Notes under the pieces: generated by a model
The model's database searches: none
Told to the model about the DNA's origin: nothing
What the model saw: only the letters and a program-made list of their open reading frames with translations
Source of the DNA: an uncultured Clostridia bacterium
GTDB taxonomy: Bacteria > Bacillota > Clostridia > Christensenellales > Borkfalkiaceae
DNA: 64,000 bases
Assembly: GCA_944363395.1 (NCBI GenBank)
Contig: CALVUC010000002.1
Location: 11,798-75,797, forward strand
Direction of reading: 5' to 3'
Translations under genes and position numbers: made by a program
In this document: positions 6,166 to 55,004 of the stretch, in pieces
Position numbering within the stretch: position 1 is the first letter of the stretch
Layout of the letters: each line of letters opens with the position of its first letter

Positions 6166-6195
6166 ATCGCGTTTCACCTCCTTTGAAACATCTCC

Positions 6196-6224
6196 ATTAT
6201 ACAACACCCCCCAATACCTGTCAA
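6196..6224 (-). promoter_or_regulatory. consensus sigma-70 promoter of the collagen-like lipoprotein gene
   Basis: Minus strand reads AAAGTATTGACA-17 nt (contains G6)-TATAAT. The -10 lies about 30 nt upstream of ATG 6165. Confidence 0.7.
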
Positions 6225-8614: not shown

Positions 8615-11600
8615 TCATGCCAGGCTGATGCGGTCGGATACCGAGCGGACGAACAGCCCCTTCTCCTCGCCGTACGAGACGCAGTCGCGCAGGAAGGACT
8701 GAAATTTCTCATCCGGCTTGACATCGGGACAGACGCCCGTGACGAGCGCCGAGACCTCGTCCATGTACAGCGAGACGCGCTCCTCGAGCGCCGCCTTGAT
8801 GAAGGAGACGATCTCATAGACGGTGAAGTCCTCGCTGCTCTTCCTGAGCGCGGGCGCCTCTTCCACGCGGAACTTGCCGACGAGAACGGCGCGCGGGTTC
8901 TTATAGAAGTAGTCCGTCCCCATCACGCGGTCGCGGCGCATTCCGCAGCCGTCGATGAGGGAATCGAGGCGGCTCTCCACCTTGCTGCCGCTCTTCTGGA
9001 TGCCGAAGGTCGCCAGCACCCGCTTTTTCAGGAAGGCACGGGAAATGGGCTCCTCGGCGGCGACGATCTCCTTGATGCGCGCCATGACGGCGGCGTCGTT
9101 CTCGCCCGAGGTGATATAGGACGCGAGCTCCGTTCCCGTCGCCTTGACCGCCTTGTAGGGGCGCGACCACTTGGCGATCCAGCTCCCCGGCTTGTGATCG
9201 GCGCCCGTGAGACGGTCGAGGATATCCTTGATGCGCTTGATCTCCCGCTTTGGATTGTTGTAATAGTTGACGCTGTTGATGCGCAGCACGTTCCAGTTGC
9301 CGCGCTTGAGCGACTGCACCTGCAAAATGTTCCTGTCCTTGACGGAGAACTGATCGGTGCCGTCGCACAGCACGCCCAGCACGAAACGGTGTTTGTTCGC
9401 GGGGTCGACGACGGCGACGTCCACCTTGAAATCGGACGCGCCCACGTCGTAGCGGCACTCATAGCCGTATGCGGAGAGCTCCTCGGCGATGTACTTGCCG
9501 ATGCCTGTCCCCGTGCGCACGGACGCAGAAGGCGCAGCCAGCGTCGTCCTGCCCTTTTCGGCAAATTCGAGGAACGCCTTGAGCCCCGCGACGCCCTTGG
9601 AGGAGGTCTTGGCGAGGTCGATCATGGGCGAAGTCATCGTGGAAAAGACGAGCATCTCCTCCCTTGCGCGCGAGACGGCGACGTTGAGACGCCGCCAGCC
9701 GCCCGCCTGATTGAGCGGTCCGAAGTTGAGCGAGACGCGCCCGGAGGCGTCGGGACCGTAGCACACCGAGAACAGGATGACGTCGCGCTCGTCGCCCTGC
9801 ACGTTCTCGAGGTTTTTGACGAACACGGGCTCTTCCCTGTCATAGGCGACGGTCTCCAGCCGCTTTGAGACGATCTCCTTGCTCAGGAGCCGTTCGATAT
9901 ACTCGCACTGCGCCGTGGAGAAGGTGACGACGCCGATGCTCGACTTGGAGAGCACGGGATCGGAGAGCCTGCGCACGACCTCGGCGACGAGCGCCTCCGC
10001 CTCCTTGGCATTGCGCTTGGTGAAGCCCCTGTCATACACGCCGTTCACGAGCATGAGCCGCACCTTGCTGTCCATCGCGTCGGGCGAGGGGAAGGTGCAG
10101 AGGCGGTTGTCATAATACATACTGTTGGAGAAGGCGATGAGGCTCTCGTGCTTGCTGCGGTAGTGCCAGATGAGGTGGCGTTCGGGCATCCCGAGCGCGA
10201 GGCAGTCGTCGAGCACGCTTTCGAGATCCTCGTTTTCGAGGTTCTCCTCGTCCACATACGCCGAACGGAAGAAGGCGGTGGGCGGGAGCTGTTTGGGGTC
10301 GCCCACGACGATCGCCGCCTTGGCGCGCGCAATGGAGCCGACCGCCTCCGCCGTAGACATCTGCGAAGCCTCGTCGAAGATGACGAGATCGAAGATATCC
10401 GCCTCGGGACGCAGGTACTGCGCGACGGTGGTCGGGCTCATCAGCATACACGGGCAGAGCACGCCCATGAGCGTGGGGATCTCGGCGAACAGCCCGCGCA
10501 GCCCCGAGCCGCGCAGATTGCTCTTGGACAGACGGGTGTAGGCGTTCAGTTCCACCGAGAGGCTCCCCTCCCCGTCCGAAGGCAGGCGGGAGACGAGCTC
10601 CGCGCGCAGATGATCGCGCGTGAGGCGGGTGAACTCCTCCCATGCGATGCGGAATTTTTCGATGGTCTCCTCGAGCGTGCCGACCGTCATGCGGGAGAGC
10701 GCGGGATCGGCGGGGATGTTGATCTCGAGGAAGTTGCGGTAGACGTTCTTTTCAAAGCCCGCAAGAACGTTGTCCGTGCGGAACCTGCCGCTCTCCAGCG
10801 CTTCGGTGATGAAATTGAGCCCGCTCTCGGCGAGCGTCGCCGCCGTCTTGCGGTACATACACCAATTGGGGAGCATATCGATATTGTCGATGAGGGCGCT
10901 CGCCTTGGCGGAAAAGTAATCGAGAACGTCCTCGTCCCGCAGCTTGGAGCGGTCGGCGTTCGTGATGCCCAAAAAGGCGTCCTGCGCGTGGAAATAGCTC
11001 TCCGCCGCCTTTAAGTACCCCTCGAGGACGGGCTTTGTATAGCCGCTCGTCGCGCGGATGCACATCCCGTTGAAGGCGTCCGGATTGTAGTCCATAAACA
11101 CGTCCGCGGCGCGCGCGTGCAGGTCCTTGAGATCGGACAGGAACTCCGCCCGCTTTTTGAAGTTGATGCGCCCCGCGCGGTCGGTGAAGGCGCGCGAGAG
11201 CGCGGTGTTCGCCGTGATGCGCGCCATCGCGTCATAGATATCGATGAGGGTGCGCAGATATTTGGGGACGTCCTTGCTTTCGACGGTGTGATAGCAGGCG
11301 CGTTCCAGCTTTTTGACGATGCCGCGCATGGTGCGGTTGAGCCGCCAGTCCCCCGACGTCTCGACAAAGCGGCGCAGCTCTTCGAGATCGCGGTCGGGGT
11401 CGACGAGCGTCCTGAAATGCTTGTTGTAGTATTCGAGACAGGCGTCGAGGCGCTTGTCCGCATTGTAGAAGGTGTAGAACTGCGCCTCGTCCACGCCCGC
11501 AAAGTACTTGTCGTACGCGCCCTCTGCCATGCGGCGGGCGAGCTCGGAGAGCGCGCGCACCTTGCGCAGCGTGAGCGTGGAGATCTTCTGCCTGTAAAAT

Positions 11601-40704: not shown

Positions 40705-40752
40705 ATAAATTGCCCGCGCGTGTAAATTTTCTTTTACAAAAACATCACGCGG

Positions 40753-40794: not shown

Positions 40795-40822
40795 AAAAAA
40801 AGCACCGCCGCGAGGGCGATGC
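40795..40822 (-). terminator. Rho-independent terminator of the giant surface protein gene
   Basis: gcaccgcc-gcgag-ggcgatgc (one G-U pair) preceded by A7 on the plus strand. Confidence 0.75.
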
Positions 40823-40832
40823 CTTTTTGTTG

Positions 40833-43800
40833 TTATTCCGTCTGCCCGGAGCGGTCCTCCGGCTCCGCAGGTTCTTCAGGCTCCGCGGGTTCTTCGGGTT
40901 CTGCGGGCTCTGCGGGTTTTTCGGGCGCCGCAGGTTCTTCGGGCTCTGCGGGTTCTTCGGGCGCCGCGGGTTCTTCGGGCTCCGCAGGCTCTGCCGCGTC
41001 TGCCGCCGCTGCCTCCGCTGCTTCCTCCGTCCCCTTCTTTTTAAGAAGGAACACGAGAAGGATGGCGACGAGGAGGATGACGACGACAGCGCCGAGGATC
41101 CAGCAGACCGTCACTTCCGCGGGCGAAAAGACCGCAAGGAACATGGGCAGCGCCGCGACCGAAGCCGCCTTTGTGCCGCCCGCACCGCCGTCCCCGCCGT
41201 CGCCGTCCCGCTTTTTGCGGCGGACGATGCCGACGATGAGGATGACGAGCTCGATTGCCGCGATGACCGCAAGCAGGATGATGAGCCACAGGAGCGAGAG
41301 CACTTCCTCTTCGATGAGCCAGGTGAACGTCACGGCGTCCGTCGTGCCGTCCGACCAGCAGTAGTTGGCGGGATCGCGGAGCGTGACGTACACGGTGTAC
41401 GTCCCCGCATCCAGCCTGATGTTGCCCTCGATCTCCATCGTTTCGTCATCGAAGCCCTCGGGCACATACTCGAGCAGACCGCCGTCCGCAATGAAGGCAT
41501 CCTTGTCTGCCGCGGGCTTTTCAATGGCGAGTTTTGCGATCGTCCACGTCAGGGTAGCGGTTTCGCTGCCGTCCTCCCAGACATAGTTGCCGCTCGTGAG
41601 CGCGATCTTCACCGTGTAGACGCCCGCATTGACCTCGCTGAGGACGGTCTTTCCGTCCACGACCGCGACTGCGCCTTCCGCGACCGCCATCATGAGCGGA
41701 TCGTAGCCGACGATCGCGTTCGTGAGCGATCCGCCGCTGTAGACGGACGAGCCCGTCTCGAGCGAAGGCAGCGCCACAGGGCGAGGAAGGATGCGGAACG
41801 CGACCGCCTCGGAGACGGCGCCGCCGTAGTTGCCCGCCGCCTCGACGTACGCTCTCACATAGTAGCTTCCCGCGTCCTCGGGAACGACGGACGAATACTC
41901 GCCGTCCTTCTCCGCCGAATACTTGTAGACGATAAAGTCGTTTCCGTACAGCGCCTGCGCGCCCGAAGGCACATTGGGTTCGTCGCCGTACATCCAGTCT
42001 TCGATGACGGGAGACTTGATAAAGGCGTTCTCCGCAGACGTGATGCGGAAGGTGACGGAGGCGACCGCCGCATTGGCATTGTCCCAACGGTAGTTCGCCG
42101 TATCCTTTAAGGTGAGGGTGACGGTGTAGCTGCCGACGTCCACCCAGTCGTCGCCCTGTTCGACCGTGTAGAGATCGGTCTCCGTGAGGTTGGACTGCTG
42201 CGGCTTGCCCGTGTAGGGCTTGGAGCCGGGCGAAGGCACGCGGACCATCTGCCGCTCGATGACGAACGCCGCGCTCGTCGTGCCGATCAGGCGATAGCTG
42301 TCGGTCGTGAGCGTTGCCGTCACGATATAGGTACCCGCCTTCGTGGGAACTGCCGTGGAGTTATAGGACGTGCCGTCGTTCGCGGTGCCCGTGTAGGTGA
42401 GGATCACGCCGACTTCGTCGTCCTCGTACGCGCCGTGGAGCGTCGCCGTCGCAGGCGTAATGGTGCCGCCGTACACGCCGCCGCCCGCAGCGATCGTGAC
42501 CGTGAGGTCGACGGAGCGAACAAAGAGCGTACCCGTCCTGTAATCGATCTCGTAGTTTTCCGCTTCCAGACCGCTTGCCCTGACCGTGTAGGAGCCTGCG
42601 GCGGAACCCGCGGTGTACCCGACGACCGTGAAGGTGAGGCTGCCCGTGAGCACGCTCTCGTCCTCGCCGCCGACAAAGCCGGCGTACGTCACGCCGAACG
42701 CGGAAGGCGCGTCTTCCCCGTAGTCGATGGTCGCCGTTCCGACGCGGACGACGAGCTGCGCCTTGCGGATGACGACGGTGAGTTCCACGAACGCATCGGC
42801 ATGGTTGACGGCGCTGAGCTTGCAGTAGACGGTGTATGTCCCCGCGTCCGTGAACGCGATCTGCTCGGTGCTCCAGACGGTGTCCTCGTCGTTGGTGAGC
42901 GCGTACTGCCAGGTGACCGCGCTGCCGTCCACCGCCGCGGCGCTGCCTGCCGTGCGGGCGTTGTGTTCTTCCGCATCGTAAGTGCCGGTATAGCCCTTGA
43001 CGCCCGAAAGCGCGATCTCGGCGGGAAGGATGGTAAACGTGAAGTAACCTTCCGCCGCGTTCCAGCTGTCCGTTGCCGCGACGGATGCGCGCAGCACATA
43101 GCTGCCGACGTCCGAAGGCATCGCGTCCGTCCAGTCGAGCGCCGAATAGTCGCCCGCAAAGTCTACGGGCAGGACCGCGTAGGCAAACACGGGTTCGCCG
43201 AACGCAGCCGTTGCGGAAGGCGTCTCGGGATCGCGCGCGCCGAAGTACGTCCATTCGTCGTCAAAGACGATCTCCTCGATCGCGTTCTCCGCCGCCGTGA
43301 CCGTCCAGGTAAGTTCGATGACGTCGTCCTCGCCCTGCCAGACGTAATTGAGGTCGGTGAGCGTGACGGTGACGGTGTAGACGCCGCCCGCCGTCGCATA
43401 GACGACGCCGTTTTCCGCACGCGCGCCCTCGGTGACGGAGACTTCCATCTTCGCGCCGTCGAAGTCCGCGATGACGTTGGAGAGCTCGTCGCCCGTGTAC
43501 GTCGTCTCGCTGACCGTGAGCGAGGGAAGCGGAAGCTGCGCGCGCCTCACGGTGAAGGCGAACGCCTCGGACTGCGCGCCCTTCCAGTTGCGGTCCCCCG
43601 TGACGACGGCGATCAGCCAGTAGTCGCCTGCGGCAAGATCGGTCATGTCGCCCCAGGTAAACCATTCGGTGACTGCGGACGTGTCGTCGCCCGTCCTGAC
43701 GGCGTACTCGTAGACGACGTCGCCGAAGTCCGCGGCTGCGTCTGCGGGCGCGTTGACGGTATCGTCGTATTCGCCGTACGTCCAAGGCGTGACGACGGGC

Positions 43801-46800
43801 TGCTCCGTGAACTTGTTCGCCGCCTGTTCGATGGTAAAGCCGACCGTAACGGTATCGCCCTCGGCGCCCTTCCACTTGTAGTTGGGGTCGATGATGGTGA
43901 GTTCCACGTCATAGGTGTTGACGTTGATCCAGCCGCCGCCCTGTTTGACGGAATAGATGTCGTTCGTCGCAAGATCTGCGGTGAGCGGCTTGCCCGTATA
44001 CGGCTTGCTCTGCGCGGCGGGGATCTCCACCTCGGCGCGCCCGATCGTAAACACCGCGCTCGTGGGGTCAAGGCTGTAATTGCCCGCATCGGCGCCCGCA
44101 AGCGTCGCCGTTACGATATAGGTCCCCGCATCCGTCGGCACATCCGTGGAATTGTAGGACGCGCTGTCCGTATAGGTGAGCGTGATGGTGACCGTGTCGC
44201 CGCTGACGATGTCGCCCGCCGCAAACGCCGCCTCGGCAGGCGTGACCGTGCCGCTATAGACGCCGCCGTTCGGGGTGATGGTGACCGTGACGGGCTTCGC
44301 CGTGATGGTGTAAGCGCCGTTCTTAAAGACGATCTCGTAGTTGCCGATGCCCTCGGGCGAGCCGACGATGCTGCCCTCGACGGGATAGCTGCCGACGTCG
44401 CTCGTCGCGTCCGCCGTCGTCGAGAGTGCGATATAGTCCCCGTACGCCGCTGCAAACGCCTCGTCGTCCGCAGACCATGTCACTTCGTCCGCCGAGACCT
44501 CGCTGCCGTAGACGGAGGATGCGCTGCCGATGGTGACGTTGACCGTCTTTTTCCTGACGATGAGCGTGCCCTTGACGATATCGAAGTCGTAGTTTTTCGC
44601 TTCGATCCCCGAAACGGTGACATCGTACTCGCCCGCCGCGCCGCTGTACCCTTCGGCGGTGAACACGGGCGTACCCGTAATGACGGTCTGCGTCTCGCCG
44701 AGGACAAAGCCGCGGTATTCGATCGAATAGCTTTCGGGCGCTTGTTCGCCGTAGACGATCTCGGCGCTGCCGATGACGACGCCGAGCGTCGCCTTATCGA
44801 TCCTGACCCGGAAGGAGCTGGTCGCATCCGCATGGTTCTTTGCGCTGACCTTGTACCAAACGGTGTATTCCCCCGCGTCCTTCAACGCGATCTGCGCCGT
44901 CTGCCAATCGTTCTGCCCGTCGAGGCGGTACTGCCAGGTGACCGCGCTTCCGTCCACCGTCTCGGCGGTACCCGCCGTGCGGGCGTTGTGCTGCCTGCCG
45001 TCGTAGGTGCCGGCATAGCCCGCGACACCCGAAACGGCGATCTCGGCGGCTTCGATCGTGAACTGCTTATACGCGACCGCGCCGTTGTAGTTGTTCGTCT
45101 TTGCGACGGTGGCGCGGACGACGTACCTGCCCGCATCCGTCGGGAAGCCGCCCGTCCAGCCCGTCACCGCGCTGTAATCTTCACCCGTGAAGCCTTCGGG
45201 CAGGAGCGCGTACGCATACACCGCCGTGCCGTACGTTGCCGAAGCCTGCGGAAGCGTCGACGGCGTGTCGCCGTACGTCCAGCTGTTGCCCCCCTCGGCA
45301 TCGGGAATGGCGACGGTGTTGTCCGCTGCCGCGCGTACCGTCCAGGTGAGGACGACAGCTTCGGCAGTACCGTCTTCCCAGACGAAGTTGTCGCTCGTCA
45401 GGGCGATCGTGACCGTGTACTCGCCCGCGTTGCTCGTCTGCACGCATACGGTGAACCCGCCTTCCGTCGACGTCGCGATCGTCGCGGTCGAGGAAACGGT
45501 CATCGTGCCGGAGACATAGCCGTTGACGTTGTTGGTAAGAGGCGTGCCGTTGTAGACGTCCACGTTATAGGTGCTTTCCGCCGTATCGAGCGCAGGAAGC
45601 GCGACCCCCAGCGGCGAAATGGTGAACTCGGCATACGCAAACGCCGTGCCATACCCGCTTGCAACATTGCCGGGATAGTACGCGCGCACCCAATAGCTGC
45701 CCGCGTCGGAAGGAAGGGTCTTGGAATAGACCGCGCCCGCGGGCGACCCCGCTTCCGTCCGTACGGCATACGAGAAGATGATATCCGACGTATCGCCGTA
45801 GGTAAGTTGGAGGATGTTGTCCAGACCTGTGCCGTTCGTCCACGCTGCGGGCGTTCCGTACGTCCAGCCGAGATCGGCTTCTTCCAGGAAGGAAAGCTCG
45901 TTGAGTTCCGCGGAGACCTCGAAGCCGATCGTCGTCTCGTTCCCCTCGTCAAACGTATAGTTGTTAAAATCTTTGATGGTGATGACGACCGTATACGTTC
46001 CTGCCACGCCGTTTACGGTGATCGTGTAATCGTTGGTGCTGACTGCCTGCTGCAAGATCTGCGCCCCGTTACCGACCGCCACCTGCGTGCCGACCGAAAG
46101 GACGGTGTCGATCGGGTCTTCGTAGCCATCGAGGCCGTAAAACAGCAGCCGGTTCTTGTGCTCGGTTATGTCCTGATCGACCTGGATCGCAGTCTTCTCC
46201 CAATCGGCATCCAGCAGGCGCTTTGCGATGTCGTACCCGAACTCGTCCGAATACGTCTCGCCTTTCGCAAAGATATAATTGTCGTCGGTGATCTCGACCT
46301 TTGCGAAGTATACGCCCGCATTGACGGGCTCCGTCGTCACCCATTCGTCTGCGCTGCCGCCGAGGAAGGCGCCGTTGTTGCACGTTCCCCTGTACCAGAC
46401 TTCATGCGCAACGCTGTCCGTGTCGTACTTGTTTGTAAATTCGACGATCGCGGCGATCGGATCGCCGTAGCAGTACTGCTCGCTGCCCGGCGTCACGCTG
46501 ACCGTGACGACGCGCTTTTCGACCGTGAGCGTGCCTTTCTCGAACACGATGGTATAGTTGGAGGAAGTGAGCCCGCTCGCCGAGATCGTGTATTTGCTGC
46601 CTGCCGCGTCGCCCTGCGCATACGCCGCGTTGCCGTCCTTGCTCGCCGTCGTATAGACGATCGTACCCTTGAGGTCGGAGAATGTGGAGCCGTTCTCGTT
46701 CCCTTCGTTATTGACAAAGCCGCTGTATTTGACGGTAAACAGCGCATCGGCGTCGAGCGCGTCGCCGTAGGTGATGGAAGCATCCTGCACGGTAACGGTG

Positions 46801-49800
46801 AGCGTCGCCCGCCCGATCGTGAGTTTGCCCCAGGTGTTGCCGCCTTCCTGCGAGCCGTTGCCCGCGAACGTCACGGCATAGTTGCCGTTTTCATACGTCG
46901 CCGTGATGTCGTGTGTGCCCGCGTTCACGCCCGTTGTCGCAAGCGTGACGTGGAGATCGGCTTTGTCGTCGCCCCCGTAGAGGTCATCGACCGTGAATTC
47001 GCCCTGCGTAAGCGCCGCCGTGACGCCCGTGTACGTCGTGGTCTGATCAAGGATGGTGACCGTGACCGCGCGCTGTTCGACCGTGAGCGTCGCCGCTCCC
47101 ACAATGATATTGTAGTTGCCCGAGGAGAGGCTCTCCGTCGTCACCTCGTACACGGAGCCCGCCGCCGCGCCCGGCGCGTAGGCATTGCCGCCGCTGTCGC
47201 GGGTCAGATAGACGATGGCGTCATAGCCTTCCAGCAAGCGCTCGTCCTCGCCGTCCGCAAAGCCGCTGTACGAAACGGAGAATGCGACCGAACCGATCGC
47301 GTCGCCATAGACGATCGCGCCTTCACTGCCGCCGTCCACAAGGACGGTAACGGTGAGATCCCGCCTTTCGATCGCGAACTCACGCGCGGCGTCCGCCATC
47401 GCATAGTTGGGATCGGTGACACGGACGGTGACCTTGTAGCTGCCGACGCCGACGGGCGCCGTGGACGAAGCCGCATAGTCCGTGCCGTCCACGCCCTCGT
47501 AGGTCACCGTGTAGCCGTTCCATTCCTCGTCGACGATCGCCGCAGCGCCCTCCTTGGTGAAGGTGAGCTTGACGGGATGCTCCTGCGCGTCGTAGGTGAG
47601 ATCCGGATCCGGCGTGATCGTGACGCCGATCGCACGCGCAATGATCTCGAAGGAGATCCCCGACGAACCTGCGGTGAAGTTGGGGTTATCCGACGTGAAC
47701 TGCACGCGGTAGTACCCGGCGTCGACGGGGGCATATTCCTGCCCTTCCCCGAGCTCCTCAAACTTGCTAAGGTCGGCAAGATCGGGGTTCCAATCTTCCG
47801 CCGCTCCTGTGTAGACATAGTACACGGGCGTAAGCTGCGCCGCTTCCCCGCCCTGCGTGGTCGCGGAATACTGCTTTGCCGCGCCGTCATACTCAAGAGA
47901 CCCTGGTGCGGTGATATTGATGGAGACCGTCGTCACGCCGATCGTGTAGCTGCCGACTTCGCCCTCGTAGACGGTTTCGCCGTCGGAAGTGATGGTCTGC
48001 GTGCCGCCGTTTCCCTCAAACCCGATCTCGTAATTTTTGGCGTAATCATTGAGAACGGGGTAGATATAGTACGTCCCGACGGGAGACGTGTTCGTTGCCG
48101 TGGTGCGAAGTTCGAAGGGAACCTCGCTGTTGTAGAATGTCTCCTCGATGCAGCTCCATGTCAGGTCACCGAGTTCGGCAAGATAGTCGCTGCCCGCGTC
48201 GTTGATCCGCACGGTGACGGCGCGCTTGTTGACAGTGAGGTAGCCATCGACCGCGGTCACCGTATAGTTTTTGGCTTCGCCCAAGAACTTCGTATAGATC
48301 ACATAGGAGTTTTCGCCCGCGGCGTTGCCCGTGAAATAGCTTGTCTCAATGGTGTCGACCGAAAGCCCGGTTTTAAGGAGGGTGTCAAAGTTCTCGCCGT
48401 TTGCATAGGCGCCTTGCGTGGCGCGCGCCACATACGAGCTGTGCTCGTCGCCCTTGAAGTCTTCGGCGGCGCCGTAGCCGTAGGTGACCTCGCCATAGAT
48501 GGCGATGGAGATGGCGATCTTTTCGATCTTGACCGTGACGAAGTCGATCACGTCTTTATGGTTGTCGGCGCTGACTTTGTACCAGACGGTGTATTCCCCC
48601 GCGTCCGTAAACGTCGGCATCGACGTCCAGCCTTCCGCATCCGCAGCGGGCTGCGAGTCGCTGACGATGAACGTCCAGTCGGCATCCTTTCCGTCCGCTG
48701 TCGCAGCGGTATACCCATCGACGAGGGCGTTGTGCGCCGCGGCGTCGTACGTTCCCGCATAGCCCTCTGCGCCGTCGACGGTAATGTCCGCCTTTTTGAT
48801 CGTGTACTTATGCGTGAAGGTATCGCCGAGTTCGTAGTTGTCGCCCCAATCGCCGATAGTTGCCGTGAAGGTGTATTCTCCCGCGGCGATGAAGTCGGCG
48901 GAACTGCCGTCCTTTGCAATACTCTCGCCGAGGTCGAGCGTGCCGTCATCATTGACGCCCGTTGCCGAAGCGAACGCGCCGCCATTTCCCTCATACAGAT
49001 CTGCGCCCGTGTAAACGAGATCATACGCCGCCCAGTCGACCGACGTGATCGTGTACTTGTCGACGACGAGTTTTTGTTCGGGCGTGTAGTCCCGATCGGT
49101 CTCGCCCTTGGTGAAGGTATAGTTCGGGTTGTCGATCGTCAGCGTGATGGTATAGCTGCCCGCAGGGGAAGCCGCGTCAGCCCAGACGTCGCTTGCGTCC
49201 ACGCCCTCGTAGGTGACTTCGCCTTTGAGGATATCCTGCGCCTCGCCGTTGACGAGACCTTTAACGCTCCACGCCGTCCCCTTCGCGCTGCCGTAAGTGC
49301 CGCCGTCGTAGGTGAACGCAGGCGTCAGGAGGGCGGGCATGATGGTGAAGGCGTCTTCAAAGGTCTTGCGCTCATTGCCCGCGTCGCCCGTCCAGCCCGT
49401 AACGGTAAAGTTGGGGTTGGTGAAAGTGAGCGTGACCGCGTAGCTGCCCGCGTCCCTATTTTCCGCGATCTCGAAGACGATCGCATCGTCGAGGTCGGCG
49501 TCGAAGGTGTCGCCCGTAGTAACGATGTAAGAATCGTTCAGACCGCCCGTGAACACCTCGGAAGCGTCATACGCCGTGCCGCGGTAGGGTTCACTCTTTT
49601 TGACGACGTCGATCCCGATCTCAGCCGGTTTGATCGTGTACTCGTGCGTGAAGGTCAAGGTCGTACTGAGTACATAATTATATGCCTGCTCGGTGGTCAG
49701 TTTCGCCTCAAACAGATAGGTGCCGACATCTTGGAACCTCACCTCGACGCCGTTTTGCGTGATCTTCTCGTCGAGCATGAGCGAATCTTCGTCATAGAGG

Positions 49801-52800
49801 CTGACGCCTTTCGTCGTTGCGAAGCGCTTATCATATTTCTGATACAAATCGGCATTGCAGTAGGTCAGGTCATGACCTCCCCACCAACTCACACTGCCGG
49901 TCATATAGCGCTCAATCGTAAATTCCTTCTTCTGCGACATCGCGCCGCCTGCGAGCTGATAGTTCTTGTTGCCGATGGTCGCCGTGACGGTGTATTTGCC
50001 CGCTTCGAACTTACCCGTAAAGTCTCTTCCGCTGTTGAGCGTGGCCGCATACGAGAAGGAGAGTTCCGCATCTTCATCTTCGATCGTATCTTTCGTAAAA
50101 TCGATCTGAATCTGATCGTCGCCGAGGAAGGAACCGTAGACGGTTTTCTGCGGCTCGATCGTAAAGGCGATCGTATAGGGCGTGATCGTGAAATCCTGCG
50201 AAAGCCCGCTTGCGCCCGTGAGCGTGTAGTTGGCGTTGGTAATTTCGACGATCGCAACGGTGTAGCTGCCGACGTCGACCGCCTTGCCGCCCGTGAGCTC
50301 GCTGTCCTTCTTCGTCACCTGATAGGTGATGCCGAGACCGTCGATCGTATCCTCCTCATACTGCGCGTTGAACGACGCCGCTTCGGGCTGATAGGACGTA
50401 CCCTGCCCGCCGTACTCCGCCGTGCTGCCGTCCCACTTCACTGCGAGCGCGCGCGGTCTGATCGTGAAGGAAGCGTCCGTAACGTTCAGGATGAAGTTGT
50501 CCGTGTGGATGGAAACGCCGTCCGCCCATTGCGCCGTGACGGTGTAGCTTCCCGCGTTGCGGGGCTTGCCTGCGACGAGCTGCGCGCCCGTGGTGCTTTT
50601 ATAGACGAGCTGCAGCGAGCCTGCCGTGACCTTCTCGTAGGTAAAGCCGCCGCCGTCGGTCGCGTTGTCCTTGATGTCGGCATCTGCGATGGCAGCTTCC
50701 TGCCATTCGCCGTACATCGCGCCATTGCCGTGTACGGTGACGCCGATCGTGCGCGCCTCGATGGTGAAGGAAACGGGATCGGATGTCGTGCCGGAGTAAG
50801 CGTCTGTCTGCGCAACGCTTGCGACGACATAATATTCGCCGACATTCGTTGGCATTCCGTTCAACTCGTCGCGCCCGCCCTCATCGTAGGCATCTTTTTC
50901 ATAATAGAGGTAGGTGACCTCACCGGGGTCGGAAACAGGCGCGCCGCTCGCGTCGGTGATCGTGGTATTCAGTTTGATCGCACCGTTGCCGCCATAAGTC
51001 CAACTGCTTTCGCTGAGAGAGACCTCCGCCTTGACCTGCGCCTTCGTGATCTCATACACGACCGTAACGGTCACACCGTTTGCGGAGAGCGTATCCTCAA
51101 ACGTATCGTCCTTATACAGCCCGGTCCACGCATAGTTTTCGGGATGGGTAAGCTCGATCGTGACCGTATATTGGGCAACCGCATTGCCCGAAGGGCTGCG
51201 CGTGACAATCGTGTAGAGTTTGGGATTCTCCTCGATCTTAAGATGGCTGTCCGCCGAGTTCGTGAAGGGAATACGGCGGTCGCCGTCAGTCAGATCGCCT
51301 TCGATATCCGGTTCCGAGACGATCTCCGAAACGCTGATCTGTGCCTTGGTAATGGTGAAATCGCTTTCACACTGTTCTGCGTTCAGATAATAGTTGCCTT
51401 CGCTGATGGAGAGCGCGACATGATAACTGCCCGCATTGACCGCGCTGTCGCCCGTAAGTTCGCTGTCCTCCTTCGCCGTCACCTCATAGGTGATGGTGTA
51501 GTTGGCGCTGTCGCCTTCCGGCATCCAGCCGCTGACAGTATATTCGGGAACAAACGCCGCCTCATCATATGCCGCGGAGAGCTCGTCCCATTGGACGGTC
51601 AGTTCTGCCTGTTTGATGACAAAGTCCTCGAACACAACGGGGTTGCGATCGTCGCCGTCCGACCACTTATAGTTATCGGAAGCAAGGCTGACCGTGACGG
51701 TGTATGTACCGGCATTTGTCTGCACGTTCCCGTCGATCATCATCGTGCTTTCGCCGAAAGGCTTCGGGTCGTAGCCTTTGGGCATATAGGTTTGCTCGCC
51801 GCCGTTATAAGTGAAGTCGACGTTCGCCATTGCCGTGGGCTTGTCGACCGCATAGGGCGTGATCGTGAAGTCCTTTGAAAGATCGGCTGCGTCTTTGAGC
51901 GTGTAGTTGTCGTTGGTAATTGCGTCGATCGCAACGGTGTAGCCGCCGACGTCGATCGCCATGCCGTCTGAGAGCGCGCTGTCCGCCTGCGCCGTCACCT
52001 GATAGGCGATGCCGACGGTGTCCTGCACGCCGTTCTGCGAGGCGAGGTTTACGATCGTCGCTTCGGGGTTCCACGCATCCCCGTCATATACATGGGTCAG
52101 CGTCCCCCACTGCACTTCGATCACGCGCGGGCTGATCGTAAATTCACACGTTACATCTTCGGGCAGCGTGTAGTTGTCCGCGCCCGTGCCCTCGATCCGC
52201 ACGACTTCGGCGGTGTAACCGGTACCCGCATTCGTCCGCTCGCCCGAGACCGTCAGAGAGATGCCGTCGCGGGCATAGGCGTTCGCCGCCGTTGCCGTGG
52301 GCTTGTGCGCCCCGCCGTCGTAAATGAACGACGTGTCCGACCAGCCGATCGTAAGTTCGAGCGGCGTGATCGTGAAGGAGAGTTCTTTCTCTGCCGCCGT
52401 CGAAGCGTCGGGGTTCGTATCGTCCGCCCACTTGTGGTTGTCGCTGTCCGTAAGGGTCAGCGTGACGGGGTATGTAGCCGCATCCACCCAATCGCCGCCT
52501 TGTTCGACGGAGTACAGGTCATTTTGCGCAATGTCGGCGGTCTGCGCCGCGCCGTTGTAAGTCTTGGAGCCGATCGTGGGAACATCGACTGCCTTCTTGG
52601 CGATCGTCCATGTAAACGGCTTATCATCGGTCGTCCCGTCCGACCACACGAGGTTGGCGGTATCGCCGAGGGAGGCGGTGACGGTGTACTTCCCCGCATT
52701 GGTCGCCTTCAGTTCACCGCTCGCAAGATCGGCGGACGCGCCGTCCGAGATCGTAAGCGTGACGCGCGTCTCGATCGAAAGCCCGGCGGAAGGCGCCCAG

Positions 52801-54695
52801 CCCGCAAGCGAGGCCGTCTGCGTGCTGCCGCTGTATGTATAGCCGGGATCGGTGAAGGAAGGCGCGGAGATCTTCAGTTTGGCGATCGAGTAGGTGATCG
52901 TCAGGGTGTTGCCGCTGACCGCGTAACCTTCGCCGTCGATGTCCTCGCTCCAGGTCGCCTCGTCCGCGTCCTCGATCGTAAACGTCGCGGTGTATTCGCC
53001 CGCATCGGTGCCGCCCGCATTCGTGACGGCGAGATAGCTCGCATCGTTCTCCCCCGCGTAGGTCACGGCGGGAGCCTGACTTGCGCCCGTATAAGTGAGC
53101 GCGGAAAGCGTCGGCGCACCCAGCACGCGCTGCCCGATCGTGAACGTGGCGAGCTCTTTGTCCTCCACCGCCGTGAAGTTGCCGCTCGCCGCGACGCTGA
53201 CGGTGAGCGTGTAAGTCCCCGTCTCGTTGGGAAGGTTGGGTTCCGTCCCCGAGCCGCTCGTCGGGCCGCCGCCCGTCTTGCTGTAAGTGTAGGTGACGTC
53301 GCCGCCGCCGTAGTTATTCAAAAGGGTAAAGGAGACGTCGTCGTCGCGGTTCCAATGAAGCTCGCCTTCCTGATAGGCGCTCTCGCTCCATTTGAGCTCG
53401 ATCGGCGGCTCCACGGGATAGATCTCATATTCGACCGTGACCTCGCGGAGATCTTCGTTATTCTCATCATTACGGAAGAAGTACGCCTGCGCCGACTCTT
53501 TCAGCGCCACGGTCACGGTATAGGTGCCTGCGTCCGTGACGGTAATGGAACCGTTGGAAGCATTATACGTCGGCGCCGTCCCGGAAAATCCTTCCTGCGC
53601 GGAGACGCCCGTGATCTCCATGATGGCGGGATCATAATAACTGTTCAGTCCGATCGTCTGCTTTGTCCCCGTGACGATATTGTCCGAAACGGAATATTGA
53701 TAATCGCTGCCCTCTGCGGAGAAGTTGGGGGCAGTCACGGCGACGCGGCTGACTTGAAGATCGGCATAACATTCTACCGATGTTCCGTTTTCAGTATAAG
53801 TGATCTTGACCCTGCCGCTTCCGTCTTCATAAATGTAGCCCGTAGCGTCGGGATCGACTTCCCAGCCGCCCTCCTCGGTCTTGCGCATATATTCAACGCG
53901 ATATGCACCGAAGGACAGCGTAACCGTACCGCCCGAATATACGACCGTCACAGTCAAATCGCCTGCCTTACAAGGCGCAAGCGCATTGACGGAACTTCCT
54001 ACCGCAAACATGGAAACGGGCGTAGCCGGGTTGACGCCGGTGACCGTACAAGGGCAGGTGATATTGGTCACGCTGCCGCCCTCTTGATACGCGACCGTAA
54101 CTTCTACGTCGTACGGAGCATTCACATTCGGCGTCTTGGGCGCAAGGTTCCCCTGGATCGTATATTCGCTTTGAGAAAGGGTGTCTTCCGTCCCATCCCA
54201 CCCGATCGCCTTCACGGTGAAATAACTCGGGATCGTGACAACGGGCGTATACGAATAGAGCGTCGCGCCGCCGTTGTATGTAGCAGAAATCGACCTTACC
54301 GCATCCTTCTGCGCGGTAAAGCCTGTAATATGAAACGGCTCGGACTGCACGTCGCCCCCCGAAACGACGACGGTAAATTCGTTCGTTTCGTTGGAACCTT
54401 CCGCAAAGTTCGCCTCCAATTCAAATTGCGACGCCCCGAGTTCGCCCAGCGACGTCCCGTCGGCATCAAACGCCTCAACGGTAAGCGCATTCTTGAGCTG
54501 CGCGTACGAGGTGTTTTCGTCGATCTCGTAACCGGGATCGAGTTTCAACCCGACCTTGACGGACTCGATCGCACTTGTGTCCTCCACGTCCGCGGAAGCC
54601 GGGACGGGCTCCGTGCAGACCCACGCAAATACCGCCGCTGCGATCATCGCCAGCAGCAGGAAAAAGCGCGTCCATGTTCTGACCTTTGTTCTCAT
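40833..54695 (-). CDS. giant (4620 aa) repetitive cell-surface protein: signal peptide, about 45-50 Ig-like/MBG-YDG-type repeats, C-terminal membrane helices, acidic PE-repeat tail
   Basis: ORF 40833..54734 trimmed to ATG 54695 behind GGAGGG. MRTKVRTWTRFFLLLAMIAAAVFAWVCTEPVPASA signal peptide. I counted about 47 (D/N)(A/V)GxYxV signatures. Many ...TITxAxLTVxxxxxxxxYG/YDG...Y.GFV.GE... units. No LPXTG. Confidence 0.9.
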   Translation of the reverse strand: MRTKVRTWTRFFLLLAMIAAAVFAWVCTEPVPASADVEDTSAIESVKVGLKLDPGYEIDENTSYAQLKNALTVEAFDADGTSLGELGASQFELEANFAEGSNETNEFTVVVSGGDVQSEPFHITGFTAQKDAVRSISATYNGGATLYSYTPVVTIPSYFTVKAIGWDGTEDTLSQSEYTIQGNLAPKTPNVNAPYDVEVTVAYQEGGSVTNITCPCTVTGVNPATPVSMFAVGSSVNALAPCKAGDLTVTVVYSGGTVTLSFGAYRVEYMRKTEEGGWEVDPDATGYIYEDGSGRVKITYTENGTSVECYADLQVSRVAVTAPNFSAEGSDYQYSVSDNIVTGTKQTIGLNSYYDPAIMEITGVSAQEGFSGTAPTYNASNGSITVTDAGTYTVTVALKESAQAYFFRNDENNEDLREVTVEYEIYPVEPPIELKWSESAYQEGELHWNRDDDVSFTLLNNYGGGDVTYTYSKTGGGPTSGSGTEPNLPNETGTYTLTVSVAASGNFTAVEDKELATFTIGQRVLGAPTLSALTYTGASQAPAVTYAGENDASYLAVTNAGGTDAGEYTATFTIEDADEATWSEDIDGEGYAVSGNTLTITYSIAKLKISAPSFTDPGYTYSGSTQTASLAGWAPSAGLSIETRVTLTISDGASADLASGELKATNAGKYTVTASLGDTANLVWSDGTTDDKPFTWTIAKKAVDVPTIGSKTYNGAAQTADIAQNDLYSVEQGGDWVDAATYPVTLTLTDSDNHKWADDTNPDASTAAEKELSFTITPLELTIGWSDTSFIYDGGAHKPTATAANAYARDGISLTVSGERTNAGTGYTAEVVRIEGTGADNYTLPEDVTCEFTISPRVIEVQWGTLTHVYDGDAWNPEATIVNLASQNGVQDTVGIAYQVTAQADSALSDGMAIDVGGYTVAIDAITNDNYTLKDAADLSKDFTITPYAVDKPTAMANVDFTYNGGEQTYMPKGYDPKPFGESTMMIDGNVQTNAGTYTVTVSLASDNYKWSDGDDRNPVVFEDFVIKQAELTVQWDELSAAYDEAAFVPEYTVSGWMPEGDSANYTITYEVTAKEDSELTGDSAVNAGSYHVALSISEGNYYLNAEQCESDFTITKAQISVSEIVSEPDIEGDLTDGDRRIPFTNSADSHLKIEENPKLYTIVTRSPSGNAVAQYTVTIELTHPENYAWTGLYKDDTFEDTLSANGVTVTVVYEITKAQVKAEVSLSESSWTYGGNGAIKLNTTITDASGAPVSDPGEVTYLYYEKDAYDEGGRDELNGMPTNVGEYYVVASVAQTDAYSGTTSDPVSFTIEARTIGVTVHGNGAMYGEWQEAAIADADIKDNATDGGGFTYEKVTAGSLQLVYKSTTGAQLVAGKPRNAGSYTVTAQWADGVSIHTDNFILNVTDASFTIRPRALAVKWDGSTAEYGGQGTSYQPEAASFNAQYEEDTIDGLGITYQVTKKDSELTGGKAVDVGSYTVAIVEITNANYTLTGASGLSQDFTITPYTIAFTIEPQKTVYGSFLGDDQIQIDFTKDTIEDEDAELSFSYAATLNSGRDFTGKFEAGKYTVTATIGNKNYQLAGGAMSQKKEFTIERYMTGSVSWWGGHDLTYCNADLYQKYDKRFATTKGVSLYDEDSLMLDEKITQNGVEVRFQDVGTYLFEAKLTTEQAYNYVLSTTLTFTHEYTIKPAEIGIDVVKKSEPYRGTAYDASEVFTGGLNDSYIVTTGDTFDADLDDAIVFEIAENRDAGSYAVTLTFTNPNFTVTGWTGDAGNERKTFEDAFTIMPALLTPAFTYDGGTYGSAKGTAWSVKGLVNGEAQDILKGEVTYEGVDASDVWADAASPAGSYTITLTIDNPNYTFTKGETDRDYTPEQKLVVDKYTITSVDWAAYDLVYTGADLYEGNGGAFASATGVNDDGTLDLGESIAKDGSSADFIAAGEYTFTATIGDWGDNYELGDTFTHKYTIKKADITVDGAEGYAGTYDAAAHNALVDGYTAATADGKDADWTFIVSDSQPAADAEGWTSMPTFTDAGEYTVWYKVSADNHKDVIDFVTVKIEKIAISIAIYGEVTYGYGAAEDFKGDEHSSYVARATQGAYANGENFDTLLKTGLSVDTIETSYFTGNAAGENSYVIYTKFLGEAKNYTVTAVDGYLTVNKRAVTVRINDAGSDYLAELGDLTWSCIEETFYNSEVPFELRTTATNTSPVGTYYIYPVLNDYAKNYEIGFEGNGGTQTITSDGETVYEGEVGSYTIGVTTVSINITAPGSLEYDGAAKQYSATTQGGEAAQLTPVYYVYTGAAEDWNPDLADLSKFEELGEGQEYAPVDAGYYRVQFTSDNPNFTAGSSGISFEIIARAIGVTITPDPDLTYDAQEHPVKLTFTKEGAAAIVDEEWNGYTVTYEGVDGTDYAASSTAPVGVGSYKVTVRVTDPNYAMADAAREFAIERRDLTVTVLVDGGSEGAIVYGDAIGSVAFSVSYSGFADGEDERLLEGYDAIVYLTRDSGGNAYAPGAAAGSVYEVTTESLSSGNYNIIVGAATLTVEQRAVTVTILDQTTTYTGVTAALTQGEFTVDDLYGGDDKADLHVTLATTGVNAGTHDITATYENGNYAVTFAGNGSQEGGNTWGKLTIGRATLTVTVQDASITYGDALDADALFTVKYSGFVNNEGNENGSTFSDLKGTIVYTTASKDGNAAYAQGDAAGSKYTISASGLTSSNYTIVFEKGTLTVEKRVVTVSVTPGSEQYCYGDPIAAIVEFTNKYDTDSVAHEVWYRGTCNNGAFLGGSADEWVTTEPVNAGVYFAKVEITDDNYIFAKGETYSDEFGYDIAKRLLDADWEKTAIQVDQDITEHKNRLLFYGLDGYEDPIDTVLSVGTQVAVGNGAQILQQAVSTNDYTITVNGVAGTYTVVITIKDFNNYTFDEGNETTIGFEVSAELNELSFLEEADLGWTYGTPAAWTNGTGLDNILQLTYGDTSDIIFSYAVRTEAGSPAGAVYSKTLPSDAGSYWVRAYYPGNVASGYGTAFAYAEFTISPLGVALPALDTAESTYNVDVYNGTPLTNNVNGYVSGTMTVSSTATIATSTEGGFTVCVQTSNAGEYTVTIALTSDNFVWEDGTAEAVVLTWTVRAAADNTVAIPDAEGGNSWTYGDTPSTLPQASATYGTAVYAYALLPEGFTGEDYSAVTGWTGGFPTDAGRYVVRATVAKTNNYNGAVAYKQFTIEAAEIAVSGVAGYAGTYDGRQHNARTAGTAETVDGSAVTWQYRLDGQNDWQTAQIALKDAGEYTVWYKVSAKNHADATSSFRVRIDKATLGVVIGSAEIVYGEQAPESYSIEYRGFVLGETQTVITGTPVFTAEGYSGAAGEYDVTVSGIEAKNYDFDIVKGTLIVRKKTVNVTIGSASSVYGSEVSADEVTWSADDEAFAAAYGDYIALSTTADATSDVGSYPVEGSIVGSPEGIGNYEIVFKNGAYTITAKPVTVTITPNGGVYSGTVTPAEAAFAAGDIVSGDTVTITLTYTDSASYNSTDVPTDAGTYIVTATLAGADAGNYSLDPTSAVFTIGRAEVEIPAAQSKPYTGKPLTADLATNDIYSVKQGGGWINVNTYDVELTIIDPNYKWKGAEGDTVTVGFTIEQAANKFTEQPVVTPWTYGEYDDTVNAPADAAADFGDVVYEYAVRTGDDTSAVTEWFTWGDMTDLAAGDYWLIAVVTGDRNWKGAQSEAFAFTVRRAQLPLPSLTVSETTYTGDELSNVIADFDGAKMEVSVTEGARAENGVVYATAGGVYTVTVTLTDLNYVWQGEDDVIELTWTVTAAENAIEEIVFDDEWTYFGARDPETPSATAAFGEPVFAYAVLPVDFAGDYSALDWTDAMPSDVGSYVLRASVAATDSWNAAEGYFTFTILPAEIALSGVKGYTGTYDAEEHNARTAGSAAAVDGSAVTWQYALTNDEDTVWSTEQIAFTDAGTYTVYCKLSAVNHADAFVELTVVIRKAQLVVRVGTATIDYGEDAPSAFGVTYAGFVGGEDESVLTGSLTFTVVGYTAGSAAGSYTVRASGLEAENYEIDYRTGTLFVRSVDLTVTIAAGGGVYGGTITPATATLHGAYEDDEVGVILTYTGTANDGTSYNSTAVPTKAGTYIVTATLTTDSYRLIGTTSAAFVIERQMVRVPSPGSKPYTGKPQQSNLTETDLYTVEQGDDWVDVGSYTVTLTLKDTANYRWDNANAAVASVTFRITSAENAFIKSPVIEDWMYGDEPNVPSGAQALYGNDFIVYKYSAEKDGEYSSVVPEDAGSYYVRAYVEAAGNYGGAVSEAVAFRILPRPVALPSLETGSSVYSGGSLTNAIVGYDPLMMAVAEGAVAVVDGKTVLSEVNAGVYTVKIALTSGNYVWEDGSETATLTWTIAKLAIEKPAADKDAFIADGGLLEYVPEGFDDETMEIEGNIRLDAGTYTVYVTLRDPANYCWSDGTTDAVTFTWLIEEEVLSLLWLIILLAVIAAIELVILIVGIVRRKKRDGDGGDGGAGGTKAASVAALPMFLAVFSPAEVTVCWILGAVVVILLVAILLVFLLKKKGTEEAAEAAAADAAEPAEPEEPAAPEEPAEPEEPAAPEKPAEPAEPEEPAEPEEPAEPEDRSGQTE
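40857..40997 (-). repeat. tandem repeat encoding (P-E-E-P-A-E)n in the C-terminal tail of the giant protein
   Basis: Plus strand shows reiterated ggttcttcgggctc(t/c)gc(g/a)g units, translating to AEPAEPEEPAAPEEPAEPEEPAAPEKPAEPAEPEEPAEPEEPAEPE. Confidence 0.85.
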
Positions 54696-54715
54696 ACCGT
54701 TTCCCTCCGATATCC

Positions 54716-54741
54716 CATATGCGCACATCTGCACGCATATG
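54716..54741 (-). other. 8-bp-stem hairpin in the 5' leader just upstream of the giant gene RBS
   Basis: catatgcg-10 nt-cgcatatg, about 8 nt from the GGAGGG Shine-Dalgarno. Confidence 0.4.
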
Positions 54742-54977
54742 CGGCACCCCTTGGAAGATGCCGTGTTCCCATGCGGTCTCCCGCACTTGCTGCCTTTGCC
54801 CGCGGAGCCGCAGCCCCGCCCGTTATGACGGCTCTATTATAGGATAGACGCCGCACGCCGTGCCTTTGACATTTTGTCCTTTCCTGCAAGATCGCGTCGA
54901 GTTTCGCCCGCGACGGCATTTTGTTAAATTTCCTAACAATATTGGGAAGAGGATAAAATTGCCCATTAGACATATCT

Positions 54978-55004
54978 ATTATAGCACCCCCCCCGTTTTG
55001 TCAA
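54978..55004 (-). promoter_or_regulatory. candidate promoter of the giant gene with a G8 homopolymer in a 15-nt spacer
   Basis: Minus strand reads AAAGTATTGACA-aaac-GGGGGGGG-tgc-TATAAT (tgtcaa 54999..55004, C8 54987..54994, attata 54978..54983). It lies about 280 nt upstream of ATG 54695. Confidence 0.5.

Follow-up and report, generated by a model that had tools for sequence, protein, structure and literature searches.

How does a gut bacterium export, anchor and vary a surface protein of several thousand residues, and what might such a protein do? One gene raises these questions in a 64,000-nucleotide (nt) stretch of contig CALVUC010000002.1 from an uncultured Clostridia bacterium of the Christensenellales; we call this whole stretch the window. 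The gene occupies 40833-54695 on the minus strand, and a first-pass annotation had described it as a gene for a repetitive surface protein of 4620 amino acids (aa). Our analysis of the reading frame, its ribosome-binding site and a syntenic ortholog agrees and finds the gene intact. We consider it probable that the product is a phase-variable, antigenically mosaic, fibrillar adhesin-like protein of 0.5 MDa that is anchored in the membrane. The gene and its signals are laid out as follows.

54978..55004, minus strand: promoter, with the -35 hexamer TTGACA at 55004-54999, then AAAC, eight G residues (54994-54987) and TGC, and an extended -10 hexamer TATAAT at 54983-54978; the spacer is 15 nt
54696..54971, minus strand: 5' untranslated leader of about 276 nt, its start predicted from the position of the -10 hexamer, with GGAGG at 54708-54704
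40833..54695, minus strand: coding sequence of 13.9 kb, 4620 aa plus the stop codon
54591..54695, minus strand: signal peptide, aa 1-35, with a basic n-region, the hydrophobic core FFLLLAMIAAAVFAWV, and then ASA followed by D
53424..54578, minus strand: hypervariable cassette 1 (HV1), aa 40-424, three beta modules and the first MBG-like domain, at the distal tip
50778..51854, minus strand: hypervariable cassette 2 (HV2), aa 948-1306, which is stalk domains 8-11
41313..53759, minus strand: stalk of 46 tandem Ig-like MBG-superfamily domains, aa 313-4461, delimited by a self-built profile, alignments A1 and A4, domain-by-domain Pfam and AlphaFold2 (AF2)
41313..45923, minus strand: C-terminal third of the stalk, aa 2925-4461, a duplicated super-repeat of about seven domains in which clustering pairs domains 30-36 with 37-43 and 44-46
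41043..41300, minus strand: membrane anchor, with a first transmembrane (TM) helix (TM1, aa 4466-4491), RRKKR, a Gly/Asp loop, a hydrophobic hairpin (aa 4510-4523 and 4528-4551) and KKK
40836..41042, minus strand: acidic Pro/Glu/Ala-rich tail, aa 4552-4620, 69 residues with a net charge of about -20
40795..40828, minus strand: intrinsic terminator, a 14-bp hairpin and then U7, starting 5 nt past the stop codon

The giant gene appears to be transcribed alone, from a promoter with a G tract at its centre. Only three perfect TTGACA-N13-18-TATAAT pairs occur in the 64 kb, against a chance expectation of none. This promoter is one of them, and the tract between its hexamers is the sole run of at least eight G or C residues in the window. 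We read the gene as monocistronic because it has a promoter and terminator of its own (terminator fold -19.3 kcal/mol, z = -3.97; none of 200 shuffles as stable) and the next gene downstream has its own promoter-like site at 40704-40676. The leader matched no Rfam family, and the Rfam and tRNA scans were empty.

The tract varies in length within the species. We compared it in 12 assemblies, using consensus sequences from short-read metagenomes, and found these states.

G8, 15-nt spacer: the window, L089, L090, L091 and L093
G9, 16-nt spacer: L085, L087 and L088
G9 with AAATA replacing AAAC, 17-nt spacer: L092
G10, 17-nt spacer: L001
G8 with TG lost, 13-nt spacer: L002
Interrupted tract GGAGGGGG, 15-nt spacer: L095

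Variation in the tract separates contigs that are otherwise nearly the same. Across 5419 nt, four substitutions and one G are all that set L088 apart from the window (99.9% identity); over the 708 nt of intergenic region and leader L088 has no mismatches and one gap, in the G tract, and L089, L090, L091 and L093 are identical to the window over that stretch. Scanning JGI metagenomes for further promoter alleles gave no match. Such length differences in near-clonal contigs suggest phase variation, and the slippery G run probably turns the giant gene up and down. Slippage would shift the -35/-10 spacing among 15, 16 and 17 nt and so switch expression between low and high, by analogy with the Neisseria genes porA and opc.

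Homopolymers in the promoter spacer are an established means of phase variation, as in the poly-G tract of Neisseria meningitidis porA and the poly-C tracts of opc and of Bordetella fim. The giant gene shares their two hallmarks. The -35 and -10 hexamers of a surface-protein gene are separated by a spacer with a G/C homopolymer, and the length of this tract varies among near-identical genomes, judged from short-read consensus, with 1-2 nt differences between close relatives and spacers of 15 to 17 nt. Unlike those promoters, this one belongs to a gut anaerobe of Gram-positive lineage, and switching here is a prediction from sequence.

The tract differences may instead be neutral polymorphism or sequencing noise, with constitutive expression and only the allelic mosaicism described below being real. 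We regard this as possible but less probable than a switch. Several observations favour it and weigh against our reading of the promoter. The tract lengths are consensus values from short-read metagenomes at 3-17x coverage, G-rich homopolymers are error-prone, and sequencing or assembly error may contribute to the differences. The extended -10 element (TGn) can lessen dependence on spacer length and may buffer its effect. G8, which gives a suboptimal 15-nt spacer, is the commonest state, and the interrupted tract of L095 and the lost TG of L002 show that the region tolerates ordinary mutation. Against neutrality or noise, the only G/C run of its length in 64 kb falls exactly between a perfect -35 and a perfect -10, and it holds the one difference that L088 shows in 708 nt over which four other contigs do not differ from the window at all. 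Two homologs also carry an independent candidate switch, a recombinase with inverted repeats, to which we return below.

A shorter G run also occurs in the spacer of another promoter in the window. At 3373-6224 (minus strand) lies a lipoprotein gene; its promoter, a perfect TTGACA-N17-TATAAT at 6196-6224, has six consecutive G residues (G6) in the spacer. The product begins MKKLL...LAAC, a lipobox, and continues with collagen-like GEx and then beta-helix-like repeats; its start lies near 6162, and the listed open reading frame (ORF) start at 6510 is probably too far upstream.

The protein itself varies as a mosaic of sharply bounded blocks. We aligned the window DNA to the locus of P0221, an ortholog encoded on contig L085.

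Flank, leader and signal peptide, 6.1 kb: 98.6% identity
aa 40-424 (HV1): no blastn alignment
aa 425-947: 91.7% identity
aa 948-1306 (HV2): no blastn alignment
The other 16 kb: 97.5% identity

The blastn breakpoints fall at aa 39/425 and 947/1307, and both blocks are domain-bounded, with four domains each. Protein identity to P0221 is 20-48% in both blocks, 80-100% around HV2 and about 100% in the membrane-proximal 900 residues. The signal peptide is 100% conserved, with zero synonymous change, across alleles in which the next 385 residues are only 36% identical. P0002 has the same breakpoints and a third head allele (HV1 identities a/b 36%, a/c 37%, b/c 57%), and L095 carries a fourth variant of the HV1 tip. 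Cassettes reassort between strains whose flanking DNA is 92-99% identical, because L001 pairs a window-type HV1 (95.6%) with a P0221-type HV2 (92%).

The cassette alleles are old and deeply diverged, moved by recombination and not produced by recent hypermutation, because synonymous sites in HV1 are saturated (proportion of differing synonymous sites, pS, 0.71) while the adjacent stalk is little diverged (synonymous rate dS 0.105, nonsynonymous rate dN 0.076). Three contigs end at aa 21-38, the junction of the signal peptide and HV1, as might be expected if the assembly graph branches where alleles coexist. The window contains no silent HV-like cassette copies elsewhere. The two complete proteins differ by only 3 aa in length (4620 aa in the window, 4617 aa in P0221); L001 has no equivalent of aa 1595-1878, which hints at a difference in domain number between contigs.

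The variable tip sits on a stalk of Ig-like domains. The first-pass annotation had counted about 47 repeats by a (D/N)(A/V)GxYxV signature, in mixed styles resembling MBG and YDG repeats, and was right about the number and the mixed styles, although a strict regular expression, (D/N)(A/V)GxYx(V/L/I), matches the protein only 24 times and a relaxed form 28 times. Our iterated self-built profile found 45 back-to-back domains over aa 313-4456, with a sole gap at aa 2058-2152 that is visibly one more MBG_2-type unit, making 46. The domains span 72-111 aa (mean 91), share 15-50% identity with the reference domain of alignment A1, and follow the consensus Y.G ... AG.YTV ... NY ... FTI, with unit positions Y16, G55 and Y57 conserved at 90% or more. 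They cluster into about six recurring subtypes. The C-terminal third is nearly invariant between strains, at 96-100% identity to P0221 from aa 3700 on.

Pfam places the stalk in the MBG superfamily, by which we mean MBG_2 (PF18676), YDG (PF18657), MBG_3 (PF18887) and MBG (PF17883), a protein being counted in when a domain exceeds the gathering threshold. In the whole protein, MBG_2 (1.6e-34, five stretches, 118.8 bits against a cut-off of 25) and YDG (2.2e-7, 31.5 bits against 25) did so. Scanned singly, the 46 domains gave 24 MBG-superfamily matches at E<=0.01 (MBG_2 8, MBG_3 8, MBG 6, YDG 2) besides one PKD and one Big_3_5, and about half were recognised by no Pfam model. A profile of all 46 matched the PKD domains of the collagenase ColH weakly (1e-3). 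One Pfam-unrecognised domain of the 'YSG...NY.W' type (aa 4304-4388), modelled by AF2 with the other 45 domains as its alignment, gave a confident nine-strand beta sandwich (predicted local distance difference test, pLDDT, 95). Foldseek searches of the PDB with this model returned generic Ig-like folds only (the lambda gpV Ig domain, PKD, ICAM-1, titin, GhpA, SraP and Sap), with TM-scores of 0.51 or less and no E-value below 1e-3. Because the Pfam matches, the beta-sandwich model and the Ig-like Foldseek matches agree, we take the stalk to be an array of Ig-like MBG-superfamily domains for which these searches gave no close solved structure.

In front of the stalk lies a head of another kind. 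The first-pass annotation had proposed a unique N-terminal region of about 450 aa; a unique part is present and smaller, with the non-repeat sequence confined to aa 36-312. Three beta modules lie at about aa 46-125, 133-218 and 226-316. The AF2 model of aa 36-316 is likewise all-beta with three modules, at a low confidence (pLDDT 56) that leaves the fold unassigned, and Foldseek matched this low-confidence model only to strings of Ig- or cadherin-like domains. The head has no significant Pfam match (best Big_3, E 0.063), no sequence relative in the PDB and no relationship to the stalk-domain profile (hhalign probability 0.3%), and the heads of five relatives received no Pfam assignment either. 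We dropped a 'Big_3-like' label for the head, for which the Pfam matches were all sub-threshold. Scanning GTDB genomes with the N-terminus found no relative; the head is lineage-restricted.

These parts together suggest how the protein would work. The chain would be exported N-terminus first by Sec and halted at its first TM helix. The stalk would then traverse the wall and hold the head some 150-200 nm away from the membrane, if each of 49 domains adds about 3.5-4 nm. There the head might recognise a ligand present in host mucus, on food particles or on other cells. The head end would also be the part exposed to antibody and phage, and this exposure may be why the head and outer stalk vary but the third nearest the membrane does not.

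The catalogue of fibrillar-adhesin stalk domains in PMC9210967 includes both MBG and YDG. As in such proteins (PMC8286594, PMC9210967), the long tandem array would be expected to carry a non-stalk N-terminal module away from the cell. Measured against the fibrillar adhesins of Monzon and Bateman, the giant has the tandem stalk, with its 46 domains. Unlike them, it yielded no known adhesive domain to Pfam, PDB and fold searches of aa 36-316, and in place of a sortase motif or catalogued anchor domain it has TM helices.

Three points count against the adhesin reading as a whole. No adhesive domain was recognised in a head that lacks a Pfam, PDB or fold assignment and is modelled at pLDDT 56. A variable cassette in the middle of the stalk is unexpected under a simple tip-adhesin model. 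The topology of the second hydrophobic hairpin, described below, is inferred only.

The main rival is a shielding or envelope role like that of Ebh and SasG. The giant would then be a non-adhesive coat or spacer. As a steric brush it would shield the cell, or mask its other surface molecules, against antibody, phage or complement, or it would support the envelope, and its variable blocks would serve immune or phage escape and not ligand specificity. Roles of this sort have been suggested for Ebh, SasG and SraP, giant proteins of staphylococci, and PMC4856396 links control of surface-protein expression to clumping. The absence of a detectable adhesive domain suits a shield, as does variation that is not confined to the head but continues in the stalk, at HV2 and in a gradient of identity from distal to proximal. 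So does the parallel with Staphylococcus aureus Ebh (1.1 MDa), which likewise flanks an enormous repeat array with an N-terminal signal and a C-terminal TM segment in place of LPXTG, and whose gene commonly carries truncated alleles among strains (PMC4856396); contigs related to ours carry truncated alleles as well. Yet MBG/YDG arrays are catalogued as adhesin stalks, and the head, a discrete cassette bounded by domain junctions and different in fold from the stalk, has the look of a functional module and not of filler. We judge a purely shielding role distinctly less probable than the adhesin-like one, with which shielding is in any case compatible.

The resemblance to Ebh is one of architecture. 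The giant belongs to the same architectural class by its signal peptide, giant repeat array and C-terminal TM segment. Ebh repeats are alpha-helical FIVAR/GA-type modules. Those of the window protein are beta-sandwich MBG domains without an Ebh-type Pfam match, and the likeness is an architectural analogy only.

Other giant or repetitive surface proteins compare less closely. The 46-domain profile matched the Ig-like repeat of CmbA/LAR_0958 (PDB 4NG0), a mucus adhesin of the gut commensal Limosilactobacillus reuteri, at E = 0.024, below significance. CmbA is far shorter than the window protein. According to PMC13339910, CmbA governs mucosal adhesion in vitro and contains an intragenic macrosatellite; unlike the window protein, it is cell-wall-anchored and has near-identical repeats. 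The periscope proteins SasG, Rib and Aap are also rod-like surface proteins of tandem domains, a class whose hallmark is DNA repeats of high identity that gain and lose copies (PMC9704523). Length variation of this type is not supported for the giant, whose best internal DNA repeat is 83% identical over 147 nt, whose tandem-repeat (TRF) arrays lie in the tail only, and whose length is 4620 aa against 4617 in P0221. We also rejected an RTX-type giant adhesin of the type I secretion system (LapA, SiiE, MpIBP), which would carry RTX repeats, an uncleaved C-terminal secretion signal and an N-terminal retention module: the giant instead begins with a Sec signal and has its TM anchor at the C-terminus, and Pfam gave no RTX match. 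The adjacent ABC genes lend that system no support because they are part of a Bmp-type nucleoside uptake system.

The predicted export route is an ordinary one. As had been noted at first pass, the N-terminus is a Sec-type signal peptide, with a hydropathy peak of 2.16 at aa 11-29 and a likely cleavage site between ASA and D by the AXA rule. We rejected lipoprotein processing, since AWVC is unfit as a lipobox and no other is present. At the other end, the last stalk domain closes with FTW, an acidic turn follows directly, and then comes the 26-residue helix TM1 (Kyte-Doolittle 3.2). A second hydrophobic stretch (aa 4510-4551, peak hydropathy 3.5) is interrupted by SPAE. Pfam gave only sub-threshold matches to TM regions here. 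Both basic clusters would lie in the cytoplasm because of the positive-inside rule, which points to an N-out/C-in topology: ectodomain outside, then TM1, a helical hairpin, and the tail in the cytoplasm. The tail is encoded by 9-, 18- and 36-nt tandem repeats at 40861-40994, and the number of its AEPEEP-like units differs among the window, P0052 and P0221. Together, the Sec signal and the stop-transfer anchor would make a complete surface route.

This anchor type recurs among relatives. The three-part form is conserved in P0013, P0053, P0055, P0056 and P0062 (36-46% identity) and in P0221, and other relatives have a single C-terminal TM helix with a short basic tail. Among the 149 closest representatives, C-terminal TM segments occur in 43 and LPXTG in none; most of the others are not classable, many of them probably being fragments. 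The first-pass annotation had reported no recognisable cell-wall anchor and had called function, ligand and export route unpredictable. Its negative stands for wall anchors, since a motif search found nothing LPXTG-like in the protein and Pfam no SLH, CWB, LysM or choline-binding match. It overlooked the TM anchor at aa 4466-4551, and with a Sec signal and a conserved C-terminal TM anchor the route is no longer unpredictable.

The C-terminus might instead be a sorting signal for an unrecognised system of the sortase, exosortase or rhomboid type, so that the protein is processed and then shed or wall-linked. A hydrophobic helix followed by basic residues does resemble the end of an LPXTG signal, and some relatives end in one TM helix and a short basic tail. 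We nevertheless find this quite improbable. The protein has no LPXTG-like motif and the window encodes no sortase; with two to three hydrophobic segments before a tail of 69 aa, the anchor region is much longer than a sorting signal; and no NCBIfam sorting-domain model matched, the PEP-CTERM 'cistern' model reaching 16.6 bits against a cut-off of 60, inside a repeat and not at the C-terminus.

The gene is a single stop-free frame on the minus strand. The ORF listing runs 40833..54734 from an upstream GTG; we take the ATG at 54695 as the credible start, because GGAGG lies 8 nt upstream of it. P0221 is an intact, syntenic ortholog, 82% identical and 3 aa shorter, on a 90-kb contig (17x coverage) assembled independently from a different chicken sample. 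P0052, from a second assembly (L086), matches aa 3378-4545 at 83% (phmmer). Misassembly is unlikely, and repeat collapse or chimerism can be set aside as the origin of the frame because the internal repeats are diverged and the syntenic ortholog is independent. An origin as assembly artefact or decaying pseudogene is scarcely credible for the ORF beside 13.9 kb without a stop, internal DNA repeats of at most 83% identity over at most 147 nt, an intact ortholog at the same locus, a second assembly that agrees over the C-terminal part and a stalk with dN below dS, for all that short-read contigs frequently break within the gene and that two related short contigs carry a frameshift near aa 600 (L001) and a nonsense codon at aa 675 (L002).

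Those two contigs are worth recording in themselves. L001 (near position 3000) combines its deletion or frameshift with the 'optimal' G10 promoter, and L002 (2458-2460) has AAG changed to TAG beside a 13-nt promoter spacer, at 2.6x coverage; in each case real inactivation and error are both possible. Antisense to the giant gene, the plus strand holds stop-free ORFs of 3147 aa (42435-51878) and 916 aa (52092-54842), which are by-products of a GC-rich coding strand rich in Thr, Ala and Gly codons. A gene caller placed a wrong-strand call of this sort (1689 aa) in the related contig L086.

Giants of this kind call for caution in metagenomes. Short-read metagenome-assembled genomes (MAGs) break or truncate them, so that their prevalence and variability are under-counted. 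The breaks lie at the junction of signal peptide and HV1, within repeats and, in homologs, at an inverted repeat, and a stop-free antisense frame is open to being mis-called as a gene.

The giant gene sits among housekeeping genes. Downstream are a ComF-like phosphoribosyltransferase and a Bmp/ABC nucleoside uptake system, and upstream a RumA-type methyltransferase, DUF5685 and a tryptophanyl-tRNA synthetase (TrpRS). As first noted, no dedicated secretion or sortase gene lies adjacent, and we found none elsewhere in the window. Candidatus Gallimonas MAGs from chicken gut encode methyltransferases that share 77-78% identity with the RumA-type enzyme of the window, and because of this identity we place the host, a chicken-gut bacterium, in a related Christensenellales species close to Candidatus Gallimonas.

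Within this neighbourhood the giant gene is accessory and occupies a variable spot, because the site is empty in a sister species and no homolog lies beside rumA in related genomes. In Ca. Gallimonas intestinigallinarum (L004), rumA is directly followed by comF-bmp-ABC, with homology to the window breaking off at 55346 and picking up again at 40738. A tblastn search with the giant protein found no homolog beside rumA in 80 rumA loci from related genomes. Contigs that end after rumA were considered as collapsed copies of the giant gene, and the other cargo present there ruled this out. Gallimonas-like genomes (L006:11605-14419, L027, L009, L013 and L017) carry differing cargo after rumA, including large serine recombinases, and the site appears to be an integration or variable hotspot. 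Elsewhere in the window, at 8615-14227 on the minus strand, lies a gene for a 1870-aa protein of helicase-nuclease architecture with DUF4011, an AAA_11/AAA_12 superfamily-1 helicase, an MTES_1575 restriction-endonuclease-like domain and DUF3320.

The protein appears to be a new member of a very large, unstudied family of MBG-repeat giants and not a new kind of system. We used word-indexed searches for the N-terminus and an exhaustive HMMER search for aa 3378-4545. The former found only two fragments, P0001 (93%) and P0002 (48%). The latter found 7920 cluster representatives at E<=1e-3, 1137 of them at E<=1e-30 and many of 3000-7000 aa, with no functionally characterised member. Matches to a C-terminal 321-aa query were dominated by low-complexity Pro/Glu sequence. 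The one named example is the 4904-aa 'MBG domain-containing protein' of Candidatus Coproplasma stercoripullorum (UniRef100_A0A9D1AEZ0, here P0056). The closest clear orthologs are confined to one species-level lineage, and a literature search found no paper on these giant relatives. The window protein shares with the MBG/YDG giants of Clostridia the repeat superfamily, the size range and the order of signal peptide, non-MBG beta modules, MBG array and C-terminal TM anchor, and with P0053, P0055, P0056 and P0062 the three-segment anchor type. Identity to these relatives is only 34-45% (phmmer); the family gives a name and no function.

Two family members carry the second candidate switch. These are P0056 in L097 and P0054 in L103, 36-40% identical to the query region (phmmer). 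A small serine recombinase, transcribed divergently, lies 440-535 nt upstream of each (regions L097:1816-3001 and L103:470-1501); the two enzymes, of 216 and 197 aa, share 73% identity. In both intergenic regions there is an inverted repeat whose arms lie about 100 nt apart and have the core GTAAAAGTATA in common, and contigs L100 and L102 start inside the right arm. No inverted copy of the candidate invertible element upstream of P0056 was found in the contigs examined. A recombinase beside inverted repeats makes a candidate invertible promoter and suggests that switching of giants is a theme of the family.

Two further relatives deserve mention. P0054 (L103:1501-15342) continues for about 500 aa past its anchor and Pro/Glu tail, with a Ribosomal_L27A (uL15-like) Pfam match, and this may be either a cytoplasmic extension or a merged gene call. 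The sample that gave L001 also holds a second, fragmented giant MBG gene in a different context (L084:2-5605), 52% identical over the last 600 aa including the anchor; it is either a paralog or a homolog from a co-resident species.

The locus is a candidate colonisation factor, with its head in at least four natural alleles and its promoter in G8, G9 and G10 states. We suggest, tentatively, that a gut commensal here combines two Neisseria-style forms of variation, slippage in a promoter G tract for on/off or graded expression and exchange of two four-domain cassettes for antigenic or ligand variation across the population, and that sister lineages use a serine invertase and an invertible element of about 100 bp. 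Reassorting domain-bounded cassettes, a length-polymorphic promoter tract and recombinase-linked homologs give the locus more than ordinary value. Its type of C-terminal anchor goes unscored by current adhesin-finding pipelines, which seek sortase motifs. Christensenellales are prominent gut commensals and almost uncultured, and this locus offers a lead on how they may attach to or evade their hosts. If the tentative double-variation reading is true, the head modules would be examples of a new adhesive or receptor fold, and MBG giants would be a widespread, hitherto unrecognised class of phase-variable surface organelles in the Christensenellales of animal guts.

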